Virus record (IMG/VR): IMGVR_UViG_3300027244_000003
DNA: 64,000 bases
Strand: one strand, 5' to 3'
Source of the DNA: a virus
Shown here piece after piece: positions 11,001 through 18,458 of this stretch. The notes under the pieces are model-generated. The model saw nothing but the letters and a program-made list of their open reading frames with translations. It searched no databases and was not told the DNA's origin. The position numbers were made by a program, and so were the translations under genes. Position 1 is the stretch's first letter, and each line of letters starts with the position of its first letter.

Positions 11001-11588
11001 ACTGTTAGAGGATTAATGGCTGGACTTGGAATTGGTAGATATCTAACTACTGGTGGTTCTTCAAACACAGCAAATAATAGTACATGGATAGTTACTGGCT
11101 ATGGTGATAATGGTACTACTGGAACTGTTTATGTAGATTCTGTTTCTGGGGCTGTATTCACTGCAGAGACAGTTACTTCTTCTGCAATTTATGTTGCAGT
11201 CAGAGAATTATTCTACGATGAAATCGCCCCACGTGGAGGAAGTTCGCTAAGTAAGTATGTAACAACACCTATTAAATTTGCGAATTCTTCTAGTTTCGTG
11301 AGAATTAAACTTGGAGCTAATTGCCCGAATGAGGCTGATATCAAAGTTTACTATAAGACTTGTCTGGGTGATAGCAAACAGTTAGATACTATTAGATATA
11401 CGCTAGCCTCCGCTGATAATAATGGAATAATTAAAGTCGACAATGGAAACTATGCATTCTCTGATGTAGACTATACTATGAACAATATGACACCATTCGA
11501 TACTATTGCGATTAAAATCGTTATGCAGTCCACTAATAGTTCTGCTACTCCAATCATCAAAGACTTTAGGGTTATTGCCTGCGCATAA
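5070..11588 (+). CDS. Large virion structural protein, DUF4815/VrlC-like (2172 aa)
   Basis: N-terminal FNTEPYNDDFD...RILFRPSFAVQARELTQLQTILQNQ, APGAHR, DNKRYTMRDIGKLENRI and DPLAQSF motifs, characteristic of this T4-like family that follows gp8. Confidence 0.8.
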   Translation: MLDFNTEPYNDDFDEEKKFYRILFRPSFAVQARELTQLQTILQNQITRHGDNIFKQGAMVIPGQVSAETITNTTKGIDYVKLQALYNGVAVATFIDSLQGLVITGSSGLKAQVIKAQRAEDTDPTTLYVRYLNSATDTTQKVFAGNEVLHTDTGFYFQAQASSATGKGSLATIERGVYYINGHFVLCDTQAITLNKYDPSPSYRVGLNVSENITTAEDDETLLDNAQNSYNFAAPGAHRYFIDLTLSKRSLESTDDQNFVELIRVTGGVVNTIVKETAYNIIYTQIQNEMERRTFDTNGDYTVNGWSVDVRESRNNNRGAWAQNSAYLINDIVTYGGYTYTAKNSASSVTTPPTHNSGSAYDGAGNSGVNWQYDENPVYNRGIKLTGNEGDLAIGIDAGRAYVSGAELENPATAYITVPKARDYDQAIDSVITPVVGNYVIVTNLNYVPTIDTGTLVNIYDGITGSSNRGNASAVSNAQLIGTARARFIEWHNILPYGSTSQYKLGLWDIQMKSGFDFNRNAKSFYTVGSGVGTSFSADIQPALVNLTGSVTAVATNTVTGVGTSFLTDLKVGDYILINDSLYRRISAITSQNSLTVDSSISSVTGVKYQLVTTVLQEAIANNLVFPLAYSSVRSMRTSGNSGVNNLNYTAYVKFNSVNTATTTLALNTSGNFASAADNDSYLVVKDSDGSVVNITASNISGTGTSNVSITVPTSGTYTVIAAVIRSGSGFEKSKTLTQVTETFISATAAQQASIVLDKADIFRIISIKMAPGTAFDSTPGSYTQDISERYSFDNGQRLTHYDYGKLNLLPSYTQPSNPVQVVYEYFEHGAGDYFDVNSYSGIDYKQIPANLRDSIDFRPRVANKTTGSGVKNFTSTGSSMTSIPKRGEYVKADYSYYLARKDKIILEPTGKLVDIQGVPSTVPGEPVTPALGMVLYNLSLEPYTFGTASTNVSVSKVDNKRYTMRDIGKLENRINNLEYYTSLSLLESETSSLKIPDSNGMDRMKNGFVVDNFGSSALVADPKTSDLSCSIDMGANLLRPAHTMHNVDLIEQASTTSARTNANYQLTGDIITLPYTTTPLVTQAYASRLEYVNPFAIYTFLGSVQITPASDDWFDTDRVPDLIQQVEGNYNSLKNMIDLNNGWPIYGAWTTDWSGTPQHTVTTNNYISGNLLMETTTDSWSQTGIKSRNGTKTSIVAKTDYESVGDRTVSTSIVPYVRSRFVLVQSKQLKPSTRFYAYFNEVDINSYCTPTTKLVYTPTGSTEILKAANHKLWNTSTNVGGSSTDIKRRIGTDVQVCLTRGDVITKSDNSASAVVVGKYLIHNDDGTTSYALDLVNIIGTFSSGNTFTGSISNQTGTVVSVTTNTTLTTNQSGEVNFLFNIPNTESVRFRTGKSTLKLMDSATSTGNYTSRGIGTYEATGTLQTVQGIVNAVRNSTIVQEQINPRAGDPNTYEVVNRNGSSTSTRVIADLTPAWTDPLAQSFYVESRGGAFLTSIDLFFATKSANVPVTVHIREMVNGNPTHQVLPFSSVTLNPDLVNAPVSGTTAEASGYTSVALPDGNSYADYNTATKFTFESPVFVEDSKEYAFVIQSDSNDYRVWISNMGDVIPGTSRTISEQPYAGVMFKSQNASTWTPDQNQDIKFTIHRAVFATNTVGAIVMTNNVLPHDQLKNNPIQTVTGSNVIRIWHPNHGMSSGSSVQLSGLTSNINGIPVGEINTTKVIANVDAHCYTITTSTVATSTGYSGGNLLKASRNIAYDLIKPTLQMQTFGESLAKFSMKTTSGTSPDGAQTSYVIDTSYSPVVVDIDNIWDKTRVVASEVNENTYMSGEKSLQLLCQISTTNNAVSPVIDTARSSAVLVSNKLNYPTESNTNVASLDTKIMFAGAAGTITGVPNSGVAVAVTGGSYNYAITGTLLTLSGSQSLTQGTQYYYGNKLYLCTVGGTASVSAPTHTYGVATNGTATLQWVGSASSITSTNATVRGLMAGLGIGRYLTTGGSSNTANNSTWIVTGYGDNGTTGTVYVDSVSGAVFTAETVTSSAIYVAVRELFYDEIAPRGGSSLSKYVTTPIKFANSSSFVRIKLGANCPNEADIKVYYKTCLGDSKQLDTIRYTLASADNNGIIKVDNGNYAFSDVDYTMNNMTPFDTIAIKIVMQSTNSSATPIIKDFRVIACA

Positions 11589-11589
11589 A

Positions 11590-11817
11590 ATGGATTATTT
11601 GAAAGTTCAAGGACATGATGGCTTAGTTAGAGATACCTCTACTGGAGCCATTATAAATACTAATAGAACAGAATATGAAACCTATATGAGCAGAAAAAAG
11701 ATGGCTGAGCAGAGAGAGTTAGAGATTTCTCAACATACAGAAGACATAAATATATTGAAGAACGAACTGCAAGACATAAAATCTCTTATTTTACAGCTTT
11801 TGCACAAAAAAGATTGA
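11590..11817 (+). CDS. Conserved small T4-like protein (75 aa, C-terminal coiled coil)
   Basis: ATG at 11590 just after the VrlC-like stop; KVQGHDGLVRDTSTGAIIN. The ORF-track start at 11506 overlaps the previous gene. Confidence 0.7.
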   Translation: MDYLKVQGHDGLVRDTSTGAIINTNRTEYETYMSRKKMAEQRELEISQHTEDINILKNELQDIKSLILQLLHKKD

Positions 11818-11831
11818 CTAAGGAAACTTAA

Positions 11832-13037
11832 ATGCCAAATATTACATCCGCATCTATTACGCTAAGATCGACTAAGGGTAGTCCTCTTACGAATACAGAA
11901 GTCGATAATAACTTTAATAACTTAAACACAGCCATTGCGACTGGTTTAACTGCAGCCAGCTATACCGCAGCTGATGTTCTAGCCAAACTAGTTACTGTTG
12001 ATGGTGCTGGATCTGGTCTAGACGCTGACTTACTTGATGGACTGACTACTGCTTCAGCAAATACAGCATCTACTGTTGTTGTTCGTGACGCTTCTGGTAA
12101 CTTCTCTGCTGGTACTATTACTGCAGCGTTAACTGGCACAGCGACTATCGCTTCCAGCTTGAATTATACAGTGGCTATCTCTGGTGGTGGTACTGGTGCT
12201 ACTACTGCATCATCTGCTAGATCTAACTTAGGTTTGGCAATCGGCTCTGATGTTCAGGCTTATGATGGTGAACTAGCTGCGTTGGCTTCTACCACTTCTT
12301 CAGCAAATGCACTACCTTACTTTACTGGCGCAGGTACTGCTTCTACTACAACTCTTTCTGCATATGGTCGCACTCTTATCGATGATGCAGATGCATCTAC
12401 TGCTCGTGGTACACTTGGTTTAACGATTGGTTCTGATGTTCAGGCTTATGCGGCAAACTTAGCTGCACTTGCAGGTGTTTCTGGTAATGGTCTTTATATT
12501 CGTACTGGTGCAGGTACTGCTGTTAATAGATCAATTGCAGCTGGTTCTGGTATTACTGTCTCCAATGGTGATGGTGTTTCTGGTAATCCAACGATTAATG
12601 CAAACGTATTGTCTGTTCAGGGTAATACTGGTAACGTAATCGTTTCAGTTCCTGTTACTTCTGTTCAGGGTAATACTGGTGCGGTTATTGTTTCTAACAT
12701 TGCTGGTAATGCTGCCACTGCCACCAACGCACATGCTGCACATACTTCTCAGTTCTCACACCATGCTCAGTATACTCCATGGTCTCAGGTTCAAGGTCGT
12801 CCACACCACTTATCTCAATTTGCCAACGACTTAGGTAACTATGGTGGTTGGGTTCCACATAATACTAAACATACTAACCCAGATGTCAGCTCTACCATTG
12901 GGCGAAATGCTGGTGGTGTAGGAAATTGTGGTAATATCGTATCTAGAAACGTATCGAGAATGCACTTAGATACAAACCACCATTTTGATCCTCACCATCA
13001 CCACAATAATTGTACCAATTGTAACTGTAACTGTTAA
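11832..13037 (+). CDS. Tail fibre-like protein with His-rich, Asn-Cys repeat C-terminus
   Basis: Fibre-type N-terminus [31 protein letters not shown] motif, repeats ([12 protein letters not shown] x2, SVQGNTG x2); ends [14 protein letters not shown]. Confidence 0.75.
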
Positions 13038-13054
13038 TAGGTAATAGGAAAACT

Positions 13055-13990
13055 ATGCAATATATAACTAAACTCCAACATCGTGCTAGATATTTGGGAT
13101 ACCCAAATGCAGTATTACCAAAACATTTCGATGATTCGGTAGGTTTAACTGGTATCACTGATCCTGTAGAATACGATAGAATATCAGCTGCTGCTGACCC
13201 AACTATTTTCGAACAGATGGAATTTGATTTTAAGTGGGATTTAAATTTAACTGGTAATATTTTAAAAGCAAAATTTATTAATGTTACCGAAAATAATAGA
13301 ATTATTAATAATTTTTCTATTGATATGTCATATTTAAGTAATGCAGACGCATGTACTCTTTGGTATATTAAAGATGATATTATTTTAAGTAATATATCCA
13401 AAGTACTTGATGCAGATGCAGAAGAACTAACTATAGTAGATACAGATCTAGTTAATTCTTTCGCAAATACTTTACCAACCAAAAATTTTAATATTTATGG
13501 AACCCATGGTTTAATAGTATTTTATGTGACTAAAGATAATCCAACTCCTGCTGATATTATCACTTGTATTATTAGACCTATAGTTAGCACAGATACGGAC
13601 TATAATACAGTTTTACCAGAAATGTTAAGAAATAATATCGAAATTAAACCACTAGGTGATTATAGAGTTACTGTTACAGGTAATTTGACTAAGCATCCTG
13701 CTGATCCTACTACATTACTGATTATTGATACACTTTTACCAGAAATAACAGTGACATCTTCAACAGTATCTGGTGATATTGTTACAGTTAATTTTACAAC
13801 AGATTCGAAAATCAATAACATTTATCTGGTCCAATCTGAAGGTTATTTACCAAAATTAAAAATCCCAGTTACTAATGGAACTGGTTCTTTTAAAGTAGTC
13901 ACAACTGGTATGGATGCAGGTGATACTATTAAAGTTAAAATGGGTTTTAAATATTGGGTTAACAGAACTGAGTTCACTAAAATATTATAA
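13055..13990 (+). CDS. Hypothetical protein between fibre and radical SAM gene; beta-rich (Ig-like?) C-terminal domain
   Basis: 311 aa ORF with AGGA RBS, 17 nt after the fibre stop. Confidence 0.6.
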   Translation: MQYITKLQHRARYLGYPNAVLPKHFDDSVGLTGITDPVEYDRISAAADPTIFEQMEFDFKWDLNLTGNILKAKFINVTENNRIINNFSIDMSYLSNADACTLWYIKDDIILSNISKVLDADAEELTIVDTDLVNSFANTLPTKNFNIYGTHGLIVFYVTKDNPTPADIITCIIRPIVSTDTDYNTVLPEMLRNNIEIKPLGDYRVTVTGNLTKHPADPTTLLIIDTLLPEITVTSSTVSGDIVTVNFTTDSKINNIYLVQSEGYLPKLKIPVTNGTGSFKVVTTGMDAGDTIKVKMGFKYWVNRTEFTKIL

Positions 13991-14007
13991 AATTTATATT
14001 TTGAACA

Positions 14008-14040
14008 TATCCTATCGGAGATAAATACTCTGATAGGATA
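14008..14040 (+). promoter_or_regulatory. 13-bp hairpin with late-promoter box ATAAATA as its loop
   Basis: TATCCTATCGGAG-ATAAATA-CTCTGATAGGATA (one G-U pair), followed by ATTTATTTT. Confidence 0.55.
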
Positions 14041-14059
14041 ATTTATTTTGAGGGATAGT

Positions 14060-15451
14060 ATGGCAACTTTTGAAATTTCAGCATGGAGTCCAGCAGAAAA
14101 GGTTACTAAGAAATTATTTTACAATAGTTCTCTTAGCACATTAAAGTGGGAAGATGGTTCCAATGTTATTGCAGATGTTAGAACACAACCTGATGTTGTT
14201 TCTCCTGCAAAGATTGAACATGGTAAAAAAGATTTAAAAACTGTTAAGATTCAACTAGGTCTTTCTTGTAACTTTGAATGTGATTATTGCAATCAAAGAT
14301 TCGTACCACATGCAGATGAAACTAATCCAAACGATGTAGATCCATTTGTATTGAATATGGACTCATGGTATGAAGGTGGGTCTGATGGATTTGGTAAAGA
14401 TACAAACTTCGAGTTTTGGGGTGGTGAACCATTTGTTTATTGGAAAACAATGAAGCCTCTTGCAGAAGCACTTAATAAAAAATACCCAAATGCTCGTATG
14501 TCAGTAATTACAAATGGTAGTTTATTAGACATAGAAAAAAATGAGTGGTTAGAACGATATAATTTTGGTGTGGCGGTTTCACATGATGGTCCAGGACAAC
14601 CAGTTCGTGGACCAGATCCTTTAGATGATCCAAAATCTAAAGAAGGTATTATAGATCTTTATAAAAGACTTGCACCAAAGCGTATGTTTAGTTTTAATTC
14701 TATGATTAACTCTAAGAATACTAGTCGTGCTGAGATTGAAAAATTCTTCTTCAATTTTGTTGATACTGAAATCGGTGAGAAATATAAACAGTTCTTAACA
14801 ATAGGCGAAGGTGCTTTCGTTGATGCTTATGATGAGGGTGGATTAGCAAATTCTTTAGTTGATGGTGAAGAAGATATTTCTTATAGAAATCAAGCATTAG
14901 AAGAATTGCGTGCTGGTAAGGTAACAAGATTTGATGTTATCGGGCAGAAAGTCGGTGGGTTTATTGACTCATTAGCGAATGGTGTTAGAATCGAATCACT
15001 ACCCCAAAAGTGTGGTATGGATAAATCTAATTCTATTGCTCTTGACTTAAATGGTAATGTTTTAACCTGCCAAAATGTAAGTCCAGTTTCTACAAATCCC
15101 GCAGGTATATCTCATAAACTTGGACATATATCTGATCTTTCTTCAACTAGATTAGATTCAGCTACTCATTGGAGTGATAGAAAAGAATGCCCAAACTGCC
15201 CAGTAGTACATATTTGCAAGGGTGCTTGTATGTTTCTTTCTGGTCCACTATGGGATGCTTCTTGTGATAATGCATTTAGTGATAATATCATCCCATTTTG
15301 TATCGCAATTGAAGAGATAACAGGATGTATCCCTGAGTATATCGAGGGTCCATTAAGAGAAGATCGTAAAGATATTTTCTGGTGGGTTAAGGGTAAACCA
15401 GAAAAGGTTAGAAAACCTAAAAAGATTATACCGATTGTGATGGCATCATGA
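14060..15451 (+). CDS. Radical SAM protein with SPASM domain (peptide/protein maturase type)
   Basis: CNFECDYC (CxxxCxxC), FWGGEP, ITNG, VSHDG; 7-Cys SPASM motif C-x13-G-x4-C...C-x2-C-x5-C-x3-C-x11-C; GAGGGA RBS before ATG 14060. Confidence 0.92.
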   Translation: MATFEISAWSPAEKVTKKLFYNSSLSTLKWEDGSNVIADVRTQPDVVSPAKIEHGKKDLKTVKIQLGLSCNFECDYCNQRFVPHADETNPNDVDPFVLNMDSWYEGGSDGFGKDTNFEFWGGEPFVYWKTMKPLAEALNKKYPNARMSVITNGSLLDIEKNEWLERYNFGVAVSHDGPGQPVRGPDPLDDPKSKEGIIDLYKRLAPKRMFSFNSMINSKNTSRAEIEKFFFNFVDTEIGEKYKQFLTIGEGAFVDAYDEGGLANSLVDGEEDISYRNQALEELRAGKVTRFDVIGQKVGGFIDSLANGVRIESLPQKCGMDKSNSIALDLNGNVLTCQNVSPVSTNPAGISHKLGHISDLSSTRLDSATHWSDRKECPNCPVVHICKGACMFLSGPLWDASCDNAFSDNIIPFCIAIEEITGCIPEYIEGPLREDRKDIFWWVKGKPEKVRKPKKIIPIVMAS

Positions 15452-15762
15452 GTAGTTTCTTTAAAGGATACGTATTAGAGATTAATCAATTCCCTAGAAT
15501 TGTAGGAAACATTGGAACTATCGAACACTATACAGTCAAAGAAGTATTTGAATTTGATAGTGATACTAAAGAATATGGGTACAGAGATAGCCTAATTCCA
15601 CTACAATCTGTTATAAATAAAGATGAGATTGACCTAAATACAATTAAAGATCTTATAAATAATAAGGTGGCTTTCTTGAGAAGAACCTTAAATTTTCAGA
15701 ACCAAACACAAGTCTGGTCTTTTGATACCAGCAAATTAGGAGAACTAAAAAATGACAGTTAA
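15448..15762 (+). CDS. Hypothetical protein (104 aa)
   Basis: ATGA overlap with the radical SAM stop; contains TATAAATA at 15612-15619, upstream of the next gene. Confidence 0.55.
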   Translation: MSSFFKGYVLEINQFPRIVGNIGTIEHYTVKEVFEFDSDTKEYGYRDSLIPLQSVINKDEIDLNTIKDLINNKVAFLRRTLNFQNQTQVWSFDTSKLGELKNDS

Positions 15763-16699
15763 AAATGTAAAATGGGTTATCGCTCATGAGCCTATTGGTT
15801 TATTTTTGAAGGTAGCCGAAGCATTTTCCAAAGAAGTTAACGAAAGAACTAATGGGAAATTTAATGTTGAGATTCTCTCATTGACTGAGTATTCTCAAAA
15901 GTACAATTTCGGTAAACAACTAACAAAACGATCTATGATGGATTTAGTTGGTTCTGGACAAGTTGAGATGGGTCACATCTATACAACTTGGCTCGCAGAT
16001 ATCAATCCAGATCTTAATGTTTTAGATTTACCATTCTTGTTTAGAGATCACGATCATGCTGATGCTATTCTTGATGGTCCAATCGGTGCTGATTTGTTAG
16101 CTGGTGTTGAGAAGAACTCTCAGATCAAAGCAATGGCATTTACATATTCTGGTGGATATCGTGTGGTTCCTGCTAATTTTAAAGCAGATACGATTGAATC
16201 TTGGAAAGGTAAAAAAGTTAGAATTAGTTCTAGCCCAGTTGCCCAAGCAACTTTCGAAACACTCGGTGCAATTGCAAATCCTAATATCGAATTAGAACAA
16301 ATGAATGAACAAGCCGATCGTGGAAACATCGATGCAGGTGAATCAACTTATGTTCGCATTTTCCCACTACAGCAAAACAAATCTTTCAAGTATGTTAATG
16401 ATACTGCACACAGTTTGTTCTTGACTTCTATTATTGTCAATGAGGCTTTCTTCAATCAGTTTGACGATGAAACTAAACAGATCATGTCTGAAGCAGCATT
16501 TAATGCAGCAAAGGCAGAACGTAAAGAATCTGTTGCAGATATTCCAAATATTTTAGATCAATGTAAAGCTGAAAAAGTTGAAGTTATCTCTATGTCTAAA
16601 TCTGAACAGAAAAAGATGCAAGATCTATTGACCCCTCTCCATGATAGATTTGAGGCTTCCTTTAGTGATGGATTAGTCAAGAGCATTAAGTCTCATTAA
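15752..16699 (+). CDS. dctP: TRAP transporter solute-binding protein (DctP family), no signal peptide
   Basis: EVNERTNGKFNVEI, LDLPFLFRDHDHA, KGKKVR (conserved Arg), DAGES and NDTAH motifs; AGGAGA RBS. Confidence 0.85.
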   Translation: MTVKNVKWVIAHEPIGLFLKVAEAFSKEVNERTNGKFNVEILSLTEYSQKYNFGKQLTKRSMMDLVGSGQVEMGHIYTTWLADINPDLNVLDLPFLFRDHDHADAILDGPIGADLLAGVEKNSQIKAMAFTYSGGYRVVPANFKADTIESWKGKKVRISSSPVAQATFETLGAIANPNIELEQMNEQADRGNIDAGESTYVRIFPLQQNKSFKYVNDTAHSLFLTSIIVNEAFFNQFDDETKQIMSEAAFNAAKAERKESVADIPNILDQCKAEKVEVISMSKSEQKKMQDLLTPLHDRFEASFSDGLVKSIKSH

Positions 16700-16720
16700 T
16701 CTAAACTAAATATATTATAC

Positions 16721-16750
16721 AGGGGATGTTTAGCATCCCCTTTTTATTTT
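16721..16750 (+). terminator. Intrinsic terminator-like hairpin
   Basis: AGGGGATG-TTTAG-CATCCCCT followed by a T-run; CTAAATA box just upstream at 16706-16712. Confidence 0.7.
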
Positions 16751-17806
16751 ATGGAAAATATAATGAAACCTAGAATTTTATATTATAACAAAAAACAAGC
16801 ACCTTTCTTAATTAATAGAGATGCTTCTTCAATGTCACCATTTTTATCTAAAACGTATACATATAAAATTTTTAATTCATATGAGACACTTGGATTAAAT
16901 AAACATAATATGGTATATGATAGATCTGGTTCTGTACCACATTATTTAAATATTGCAGAAGATGCCCACCCAATACCAGAGGTGGGTATTTCTTTTAATA
17001 AATCATTTTATCAAGCATGTGAAGAACGTGCAAAGCACCTCCTAAGTCTTAATAAAGTAGTACATGTACTTTGGTCTGGTGGAATTGATAGCACTTTTGT
17101 TTTATTCATGTTAAAGAAATTCTCCAACGATCCCGATCAGGTTAGAGTTTGGGGTACATTAAATTCTATCTTAGAATCTGGTGATATGTTTGATAGAAGA
17201 TTAAAGAATGAATTTCCTTACACTATCCTAGAACCAACAGATAATGAGTTTTCCTTTAATGTAAATGAATGTATTTTTGTCAGTGGGATGGGTGGGAATC
17301 AGTTATTTGGACCAACAGATGATATGTTCGCCACTGGTGGAACTGCTATGTTCCACCACACTCTTGGTACTCCAGAAACTATATACGAATCTTACGAGAA
17401 TAACATAGACCCTAAACTATTAGAATTTCTGGATCCAATGATAAAGAATTCTTATAGGAAAATTGAAACAGTCGCCGATCTAAGATGGTATTGTATTTTT
17501 AATCTAGACTGGTACACTGGCTTATATGAACATAGAACAATGCTTCAGATAGAAAAGACTAAAAAGATGCATGCGTTTTTTGATTCTGACGATCTACAAC
17601 GCTGGGCTATGACTACTAAAGAACCATTCACCAAAGTTCGTGGGAATGCCAATACACATCGTTGGCAAATGAGGCAAATTCTGTCCGAAGAATTCGGAGA
17701 ACGAGATTATGCTTTAAACAAATCAAAGAAAATATCAAACCTAAACGTCCAACGTCCTCAGTGGCTATTTTTACTAGACGATTTCCATAATGTCCTGATC
17801 GACTAA
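16751..17806 (+). CDS. Asparagine-synthase-like PP-loop ATP pyrophosphatase (no glutaminase domain)
   Basis: VLWSGGIDST PP-loop; SGMGGNQLFG resembles AsnB SGEGADELFG; AFFD...RWQMR resembles PFLD...KWLLR. Confidence 0.7.
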   Translation: MENIMKPRILYYNKKQAPFLINRDASSMSPFLSKTYTYKIFNSYETLGLNKHNMVYDRSGSVPHYLNIAEDAHPIPEVGISFNKSFYQACEERAKHLLSLNKVVHVLWSGGIDSTFVLFMLKKFSNDPDQVRVWGTLNSILESGDMFDRRLKNEFPYTILEPTDNEFSFNVNECIFVSGMGGNQLFGPTDDMFATGGTAMFHHTLGTPETIYESYENNIDPKLLEFLDPMIKNSYRKIETVADLRWYCIFNLDWYTGLYEHRTMLQIEKTKKMHAFFDSDDLQRWAMTTKEPFTKVRGNANTHRWQMRQILSEEFGERDYALNKSKKISNLNVQRPQWLFLLDDFHNVLID

Positions 17807-17831
17807 GTTGCAAATACAAAAATCCCTCGCT

Positions 17832-17839
17832 TATAAATA
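17832..17839 (+). promoter_or_regulatory. T4 late promoter TATAAATA
   Basis: Exact T4 late consensus 30 nt upstream of ATG 17869. Confidence 0.75.
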
Positions 17840-17868
17840 AAGAGGTAAAAGCAATTTAGGATCAGAAA

Positions 17869-18204
17869 ATGGCGACTGTTAGTAATCTATTCGTTGACGC
17901 TGGGGCTAACTACAGCAATATAATTACTGTATCCGCATCCAATGGTCAAGCACTCGATTTGACTGGATATACTGTGGCTTCTCAAATGAGAAAGTCATAT
18001 CAGTCCAGCACATCCTATAATTTCACATCAAGTATATACTTAGCAGCTTCTGGTAAGGTTAGACTTCAATTAACAGATGTACAATCTGCTAGTATTCCAG
18101 CTGGACGCTGGCTTTATGATGTAGAGATAACTTCTCCATCTGGTACAAAAACCAGAGTAGTCGAGGGAGTTGTCACAGTTAACCCACAAATTACACAGAT
18201 TTAA
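17869..18204 (+). CDS. Virion structural protein (111 aa)
   Basis: DLTGYTVASQMRKSY...GRWLYDVEI...RVVEG pattern common in T4-like tail regions. Confidence 0.65.
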   Translation: MATVSNLFVDAGANYSNIITVSASNGQALDLTGYTVASQMRKSYQSSTSYNFTSSIYLAASGKVRLQLTDVQSASIPAGRWLYDVEITSPSGTKTRVVEGVVTVNPQITQI

Positions 18205-18206
18205 TT

Positions 18207-18458
18207 ATGACAGATACAATAGCAATTGTTACCCCAGATGAAGCGTTAACTGTTGCAGTTTCCGAAGGTGTTCTTACACTTTCACAATCAAACTTAGCTG
18301 CACCAGCTGTAGTCGAATCTATGTCAAACATCGCCGATGTCGATGTTACTACGAATGGTAAGTTAAATGGATCGCTTTTAGTATACAGAACAATAACAAA
18401 TAAATGGACTGCTTCTACTACGCTTGATGCGCAGAATTTAGAAGGTGGCGAATTTTAA
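18207..18458 (+). CDS. Hypothetical tail-associated protein (83 aa)
   Basis: Tightly packed ORF; DVDV...NGSLLVY...W...LEGGEF end shared in style with fibre proteins. Confidence 0.55.
   Translation: MTDTIAIVTPDEALTVAVSEGVLTLSQSNLAAPAVVESMSNIADVDVTTNGKLNGSLLVYRTITNKWTASTTLDAQNLEGGEF

Follow-up and report, generated by a model that had tools for sequence, protein, structure and literature searches.

A phage radical SAM/SPASM enzyme recurs beside fibre and tip proteins that end in alternating Asn-Cys runs: a candidate virion maturation cassette

We analysed a viral DNA stretch of 64,000 nucleotides (nt), the IMG/VR record IMGVR_UViG_3300027244_000003 (hereafter the window), focusing on three matching open reading frames (ORFs) on one strand. 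These encode a fibre-type protein of 401 amino acids (aa), a 311-aa protein, and a radical S-adenosylmethionine (SAM) enzyme with a SPASM region. The module in which they lie is the structural part of a freshwater T4-like myovirus. The genes neighbouring the fibre encode a baseplate wedge protein, a 2172-aa structural protein and an 891-aa fibre, and the same module includes several fibre-like proteins, the large terminase, the tail sheath, the portal, and the major head protein. A megablast comparison of positions 11500-18300 with GenBank phages gave 0 matches. Contigs of freshwater metatranscriptome libraries from two studies carry all three genes with zero differences; DNA carry-over is possible for these contigs, and they leave transcription unproven. 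The three genes and their parts are:

11832..13037, plus strand: tail-fibre-type protein, 401 aa, the proposed substrate (ORF, composition, PHROG matches)
12735..13034, plus strand: fibre tip module, residues 302-401, with an F-x-N-D-x-G-N-Y-G motif, an upstream Asn-Cys, and a terminal Asn-Cys run (alignment of 12 tips)
12924..12929, plus strand: upstream Asn-Cys pair, residues 365-366, about 28 residues ahead of the terminal run
13008..13034, plus strand: terminal run, residues 393-401, four Asn-Cys pairs with Cys last
13055..13990, plus strand: 311-aa partner protein, a variable N-terminal beta-sandwich and a conserved C-terminal Ig-like domain (alignment, model)
13736..13987, plus strand: Ig-like domain of the intimin/invasin Big_1 type, residues 228-311 (structure match)
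14060..15451, plus strand: radical SAM/SPASM enzyme, 463 aa (PF04055, TIGR04085, phrog_1802)
14267..14290, plus strand: CX3CX2C radical SAM cluster motif, C70/C74/C77 (invariant in the alignment)
15011..15265, plus strand: SPASM region with seven invariant Cys, for two auxiliary Fe-S clusters (alignment, TIGR04085)

The 401-aa protein matches PHROG tail-fibre and structural families (phrog_697, 6e-18; phrog_24210, 2e-13), and both its family and its position in the tail module mark it as a phage tail fibre protein. Its counterpart in Ralstonia phage RSP15 is annotated as a tail fibre, and those in Limnohabitans parvus match fibre families. Pfam and NCBIfam assign no family to the fibre, the 311-aa protein, or six further proteins with Cys tails. 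All 15 His of the fibre lie within residues 301-391, and its five Cys are residues 366, 394, 397, 399, and 401, each of them preceded by Asn. The composition given in an earlier note made from the DNA letters (15 His after residue 300, and five Asn-preceded Cys in the final 36 residues) is therefore exact to the residue. By a rough estimate, the chance that five Cys would all follow Asn is ~9e-6 (at an Asn frequency of 0.097), and the chance that 15 His would all fall within the final 101 residues is ~1e-9. The same tip module also occurs as free-standing proteins of 86-167 aa in four other loci (L023, L100, L113, and L131). Separately, a contig from run X17 has extra letters between two overlapping pieces at 12653-12721, within V-Q-G-N-T-G-x-V-I-V-S repeats, which hints at a fibre repeat number that differs among strains.

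The mechanically called ORF of the enzyme begins with TTG at 14048. The true start is likely the ATG at 14060, because it is preceded by GAGGGA and fits the N-termini of all homologues. The SPASM Cys follow the pattern C318-x13-G-x4-C337, C377-x2-C380-x5-C386-x3-C390, C402 (the Gly being G332), and neither these residues nor the CX3CX2C motif vary among 29 homologues, the most distant at 38% identity. The SPASM model of NCBIfam (TIGR04085) covers residues 322-396 with 34 bits, above its cut-off of 27; PF04055 scores 29.2 bits, slightly below its cut-off of 29.5; and phrog_1802 matches at 5e-62. The structure model has a predicted local distance difference test (pLDDT) score of 89.9, and its top Foldseek matches are anSMEcpe (5e-13), CteB (1.7e-12), ChlB (4.7e-12), and TigE (7e-10), with SuiB and SkfB also recovered. 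The CX3CX2C motif, the seven-Cys motif above cut-off, and the fold together place the protein among SPASM radical SAM enzymes. All six of these nearest solved folds modify peptides or proteins, which supports membership of the peptide- or protein-modifying kind. Thus, both the motifs that had been read from the sequence (CxxxCxxC and a complete seven-Cys SPASM motif) and the predicted type of enzyme are borne out, the latter by the SPASM score and the fold matches. The family is large: a search of 1.84 billion representative proteins at E <= 1e-30 gives 521 clusters.

We then examined whether the enzyme and Cys-rich tails co-occur, starting from homologues of the enzyme in 20 IMG/VR loci, 80 bacterial genome loci, and three isolated phages. 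The genome loci are mostly Burkholderiales prophages, including those of cultured Limnohabitans, Polynucleobacter, Burkholderia, and Paraburkholderia strains. By tblastn, the enzyme is present at 41-47% identity in Ralstonia phage RSP15 (168 kilobases (kb), filed under Ackermannviridae) and in Achromobacter phages JWF and 2-1 (genomes of ~82 kb), two morphotypes in all. In each of the three, the enzyme gene lies directly downstream of fibre genes. The side fibre of RSP15 ends in two Asn-Cys pairs and a Cys-x-Cys, and in the fibres of JWF and 2-1 the run consists of five or six successive x-Cys pairs, chiefly Asn-Cys. A strict motif was defined as a same-strand neighbour with Cys-x-Cys-x-Cys in its final 15 residues, or with a run followed by a Hint domain. 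It was found at 76 of the 81 informative loci, i.e., those with enough upstream sequence, and a looser motif at 80 of 81. The background is low: among 3829 ORFs on the opposite strand of these loci, 5 have the strict motif. Four of the five misses (RSP15, L009, L010, and L181) have looser versions of the run, and the fifth (L179) has a broken frame.

The reverse search gave a similar picture. An IMG/VR scan for DNA encoding three Asn-Cys pairs and a stop returned 112 stretches; 44 of these are real genes (ORFs of 80 aa or more) with sufficient sequence downstream. The enzyme is encoded within ~3.3 kb of 41 of these 44 genes (32 of 35 distinct tails); of 29 short frames that show the DNA pattern by chance, 0 have it. 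Gene order shifts among loci, and the Cys-run gene and the enzyme stay paired; in one remote member (L217, 268 bits) the order is a baseplate J gene, a Cys-run protein, the Ig-like partner, a smaller radical SAM gene, and the enzyme. The enzyme essentially always has a Cys-run tail beside it, and the tail is sometimes found without the enzyme. The co-occurrence that the earlier note had proposed to look for, between the enzyme and genes ending in Asn-Cys repeats, thus holds in both directions and across unrelated phage types (76-80 of 81; 41 of 44). A literature search, which had most subscription journals outside its reach, found no published description of the pairing, in line with the claim that the system was uncharacterised.

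From these neighbourhoods we consider it likely that the enzyme acts on the Cys-run tail and, with a little less confidence, probable that the phage encodes here a cassette for the maturation of a virion fibre, in which the SPASM enzyme would modify the C-terminal Cys run. The original idea of a SPASM enzyme tied to an Asn-Cys fibre tail is upheld by comparative genomics, but not in its details on His, Gly-Gly, and the exact promoter.

The properties of the tails show which parts of the system are conserved. We compiled 117 distinct tails, about half of them collected via the Asn-Cys DNA pattern, and the sample is thus biased towards Asn. In this sample, 71% of the Cys in the final 25 residues follow Asn, and the next most common preceding residues are Cys, Asp, Ala, and Gly. 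Cys is the last residue in 102 of 117 tails (87%), and 76 of 117 have an extra Asn-Cys in the upstream zone. The earlier note had also made the His-rich segment part of the system. Yet 52 of the 117 tails have no His in their final 45 residues, the fibres of the close relatives L011, L017, and L019 have none at all, and in the tip alignment Tyr stands in for the His of the window's clade in relatives. We rejected His cross-links or His metal sites as a conserved part, many tails being without His.

The run is carried by several kinds of protein. Besides fibre-type carriers of 290-620 aa, there are the free-standing tips of 86-167 aa, which occur three in tandem in L023; carriers of 86-173 aa have fibre-type N-termini. 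Short carriers directly upstream of the enzyme are 125-173 aa long and have 15-21 Cys and ~30-38 Asn, with nearly every Cys following Asn; the two that were scanned, from L036 and L038, have no family match. In a further form, found in JWF, 2-1, L151, and L191 (the last from Burkholderia paludis MSh1), the run lies inside the protein, and its last Cys is exactly the first residue of a Hint domain.

L038:2306-2707 (minus strand), L036:4373-4894, also L053, L102, L108, L126: short Cys-rich carriers
L002:5853-7304, L003:5853-7295, L191:3745-5307, L151:3256-4401: Hint-fused fibres, with a Hint domain of ~160-175 aa whose nucleophile is the last Cys of the run

N-terminal cleavage by Hint-type domains is known chemistry. 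Since the Hint domain starts at the last Cys, self-cleavage would leave the run exposed as a new C-terminus, which suggests independently that the terminal Cys run is the functional form. These fusions resemble the self-cleaving C-terminal domains of fibres and spikes and Hint/Hedgehog autoprocessing; the fibre of the window differs in having no Hint domain and a run that is already terminal. The conserved unit is therefore the Cys run and the enzyme, usually with the Ig-like partner.

The same comparisons bear on the suggestion that the tail is cut at Gly-Gly and freed as a peptide similar to RiPPs (ribosomally synthesised peptides with post-translational modifications), acting as a toxin or signal. 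The window's fibre does have a Gly-Gly 37 residues from its C-terminus, and at some loci the protein encoded directly before the enzyme gene is extremely Cys-rich and just 125-173 aa long. But the Gly-Gly is not kept in the 12-tip alignment, even among close relatives, the loci examined have fibre, baseplate, and lysis neighbours and no peptidase or exporter genes, and the Hint variants cleave after the run and not before it. The release site that had been proposed is not supported, leader cleavage at Gly-Gly was rejected because the site is not kept, and we regard a released peptide as very improbable.

If the enzyme does modify the run, the chemistry may be considered from its cluster ligands. 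The seven conserved auxiliary Cys would leave one iron without a Cys ligand. In CteB, likewise, one iron lacks a Cys ligand and is bound by a Cys of the substrate, whereas in the anaerobic sulfatase-maturating enzyme (anSME) 8 Cys hold the auxiliary clusters. Because the count is seven, as in CteB, rather than the eight of anSME, thioether formation is favoured over formylglycine chemistry. We put forward a thioether product tentatively, at somewhat below even confidence. In such a scheme, a fibre or free-standing tip protein would carry the alternating, mostly Asn-Cys run at its extreme C-terminus, and the dedicated enzyme would modify it inside the infected cell, before or during fibre assembly. 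Cys thiolates would bind the open site on the auxiliary Fe-S cluster, a 5'-deoxyadenosyl radical would take a hydrogen from a neighbouring residue, usually Asn, and thioether bridges would form within one chain or among three chains. This would yield a compact tip able to withstand proteases and changes in redox state. That the enzyme makes thioether bridges joining three fibre chains through their C-terminal Asn-Cys tails, with or without the Ig-like partner, seems doubtful to us, and cross-links between chains are in our estimate unlikely. A complex prediction of the enzyme, three Fe-S clusters, and SAM with the final 100 fibre residues scored 0.02; it was run without controls and was counted neither way.

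The formylglycine alternative is that the enzyme, like anSME, converts Cys of the run, by oxidation of the beta-carbon, into formylglycine or a different oxidised form, placing reactive aldehydes at the tip. The best structural matches are indeed chains of anSMEcpe (PDB 4K36-4K39; Foldseek 5e-13, template modelling (TM) score by target 0.61-0.66), an enzyme with a protein substrate and no RiPP recognition element (RRE), and the anSME model TIGR03942 aligns over the whole length, residues 70-394. Its score of 40.8 bits lies far under the cut-off of 349.45, the sulfatase motif Cys/Ser-x-Pro/Ala-x-Arg is absent from the tails, and the seven conserved auxiliary Cys match thioether-forming enzymes and not the eight of anSME. 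We therefore judge this oxidation distinctly improbable.

The 311-aa protein is, as modelled, a non-enzymatic beta-sandwich partner that is frequent but not universal. Its model (pLDDT 83) consists of beta-sandwiches, and the C-terminal domain aligns with intimin (1f02; VIA-align Z 9.2, root-mean-square deviation 2.4 A over 80 residues) and invasin (1cwv; Z 8.4); a homologue has a weak Pfam Big_1 match. As a whole, the protein has fold matches to uncharacterised viral proteins only. The family is confined to viruses, and within it the C-terminal domain is kept and the N-terminal part poorly so. A profile of the Ig-like domain finds it in RSP15 (ORF047), at 52 of 80 genome loci, and at 15 of 20 IMG/VR loci, and has no match in JWF, 2-1, L021, and L191, where an unrelated protein of ~240 aa stands instead. 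The expected recurrence of a 311-aa homologue is thus seen at most loci but not at all of them. In the proposed cassette the protein would be non-catalytic, serving as fibre chaperone, as tip adhesin, or as a presenter of the tail to the enzyme; the Ig-like fold fits two of the roles suggested earlier (adhesin or chaperone).

This distribution also bears on whether the true substrate lies elsewhere, in the 311-aa protein, in another virion protein, or in a small molecule, the tail being merely a linked feature. Gene neighbourhood alone links tail and enzyme, and the Ig-like partner often co-occurs with them too. Against such a substrate, JWF, 2-1, L021, and L191 lack the partner or have another protein in its stead, and the partner's N-terminal part is not kept, whereas the Cys run persists across fibres of 290-620 aa, tips and short proteins of 86-173 aa, and Hint fusions. 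We hold another substrate to be about as improbable as an anSME-like oxidation.

Several findings nevertheless weigh against a maturation cassette acting on the run. The curated maturase models all score far below their cut-offs, including PapB (NF047865, 50.6 against 340 bits), which is the best NCBIfam match of the enzyme, and the SCIFF maturase (TIGR03974, 29.7 against 425). Judged by such scores, the enzyme is outside every defined maturase family. The Pfam scan found no PqqD match in the enzyme, and in the model residues 1-60 form three beta-strands and a long loop, with zero helices, ahead of the core; the N-terminal RRE that the earlier note had raised as a question is present in neither. 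Other residues can stand in for the Asn before Cys, and Asn is therefore not necessarily the acceptor. In addition, two or three protein families with three Asn-Cys pairs at the end lack this enzyme in their neighbourhood. Two of them, which are exceptions in the reverse search, have no SPASM enzyme nearby:

L092:2672-3226, also L037, L114: L092 type, 184 aa, 15 Cys, three Asn-Cys pairs at the end
L040:2300-2908 (minus strand in L040), also L074, L101, L124: L101 type, 202 aa, three Asn-Cys pairs at the end

The L092 genome (89.7 kb) is rated 100% complete and lacks the enzyme; its sole radical SAM-like ORF encodes a distant 286-aa protein, which we judged to be of the spore-photoproduct-lyase type. 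An Asn-Cys tail can therefore exist without this enzyme.

Tails of this kind favour another explanation, in which the alternating-Cys tail is left unmodified and forms a metal or Fe-S site that clamps three chains, while the enzyme has some other task in fibre assembly or loads the metal. Three chains with three or more Cys each would supply nine or more thiolates, to which the window's clade adds 15 His as possible ligands. Cys-x-Cys motifs of metallothionein bind metal clusters, and the tip of T4 gp37 binds iron through His-x-His motifs. Metal binding alone leaves unexplained the ~95% co-occurrence of tail and enzyme in both directions, many tails lack His, and we know of no SPASM enzyme that acts as a metal-loading factor. 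We consider it improbable, if slightly less so than the anSME-like oxidation.

Additional radical SAM genes were observed at a few loci. A second, shorter one (~317 aa; L217:4073-5026) accompanies the main enzyme in L217. In L080, another exception in the reverse search, a 317-aa radical SAM gene of this type, different from that of the main enzyme, lies ~380 nt downstream of the tail gene. L216, which has three tandem radical SAM genes, is uninformative for the pairing, as is P0273, a protein without available DNA.

Among known systems, the proposed one would work like ranthipeptide or NxxC-type maturation applied to a virion protein. As in ranthipeptide and sactipeptide maturation (CteB/SCIFF, PDB 5WGG; PapB/freyrasin), a SPASM enzyme with seven SPASM Cys and a matching fold is encoded beside a Cys-rich target. 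Unlike those maturases, this one is phage-encoded, scores below their cut-offs, and has neither an RRE nor a neighbouring export or protease gene; and its proposed target is not a precursor made of leader and core but a virion fibre of 401 aa whose very C-terminus carries the run. NxxcB of streptococci makes a Cys-Asn beta-thioether and tolerates Asn, Ala, Gln, and Asp as acceptors (PMC9389541). This tolerance resembles the residues found before Cys here, and with NxxcB/NxxcA the system shares the pairing of Asn with Cys; the terminal run contains overlapping N-x-x-C units, which follow trivially from the alternation. The NxxcB target differs in being a small peptide linked to quorum sensing, whereas here it would be a structural protein in which Cys at every second position is invariant. 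Homology to NxxcB was shown only at superfamily level, with libraries that contain no NxxcB model or sequence.

Protein-directed SPASM chemistry has a precedent in QhpD, which installs Cys thioethers in the protein subunit QhpC and not in a free peptide. The QhpD model (TIGR03906) is among the top NCBIfam matches of the enzyme, but at 42.3 bits (3.7e-11) against a cut-off of 453, and QhpC and its biological setting are unrelated to the fibre. In gene order the locus recalls the gp37 tip of T4 with gp38 and gp57A, where the fibre gene is likewise followed by a small, variable chaperone or adhesin gene and where the trimeric tip is stabilised by unusual means, namely His-bound iron. T4 differs in having neither a radical SAM enzyme nor a Cys run, and no sequence similarity was detected.

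Radical SAM/SPASM maturases act on peptide natural products and on a few enzymes' own subunits; virion proteins, to our knowledge, are thought to mature by folding, proteolysis, and self-catalysed cross-links. If the proposed reading is correct, a radical enzyme acting on the host-binding tip of a fibre would introduce a new step into virus assembly and a new factor governing host range or the stability of fibres. Were chains tied by thioethers, this would be the first enzyme-made cross-link in the receptor-binding organelle of a virus, and a large virus-borne branch of RiPP-type chemistry that works on whole structural proteins. Such an enzyme would also matter for the engineering of phage fibres, as expression in a foreign host would need the enzyme and a good Fe-S supply. 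Culturable carriers allow a direct test, among them phages JWF, 2-1, and RSP15, the prophages of Limnohabitans parvus II-B4 and other Limnohabitans, and Burkholderia paludis MSh1.

Between the partner and enzyme genes of the window we identified a putative regulatory element:

14008..14040, plus strand: 13-base-pair hairpin and T-rich run (dG -18.8 kcal/mol, z -3.4)

The hairpin loop, at 14021-14027, is ATAAATA, a 7/8 match to the late-promoter box. Hairpins of unlike sequence occur at the same spot in more distant relatives (L006, L008, L011, and L017) and are lacking in L009 and L010, an ATAAATA box lies in or beside these hairpins, and the box recurs in L004, L005, L006, L017, and L022. The hairpins suggest attenuation by which the enzyme is transcribed less than the structural genes, an arrangement often seen in RiPP operons, and the element may unite an attenuator with a late promoter. 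We looked for an exact T4 late promoter before the enzyme gene and did not find the exact TATAAATA; as the approximate box recurs, a late promoter may still be present. The late-promoter box described earlier stands only in this approximate form, and an exact box is not conserved.

Many loci have one to three genes for 2-oxoglutarate (2OG)-Fe(II) oxygenases (PF13759, PF13640) between the Cys-tailed and enzyme genes, and a second modification such as hydroxylation may take place in these phages. Downstream of the enzyme, the window itself carries a facultative cassette of three genes.

L015:5207-7001, also L014, L016, L020, L023, L048, L065, L093, L098, L100, L104, L113, L120, L131: oxygenase loci
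15448..17806, plus strand: facultative cassette encoding a 104-aa protein, a DctP-like solute-binding protein, and a 351-aa PP-loop-like protein

The DctP-like protein (PF03480, 1.7e-45) begins without a signal peptide. The 351-aa viral protein has an SGGIDS PP-loop motif, with a weak LarE/QueC-like hint and no solved relative. The cassette is found in only part of the window's clade: it lies between the partner and enzyme genes in L018 and is absent from L035, L066, L084, and L096. The 351-aa gene alone adjoins the enzyme gene in L012, L013, L034, and L087; because it is not always present, it was left out of the core. A contig from an RNA library (run X19; depth 2.4, 22 letters on one side) joins position 15405 to 17830 and so skips the cassette, a weak observation that fits the relatives without it.

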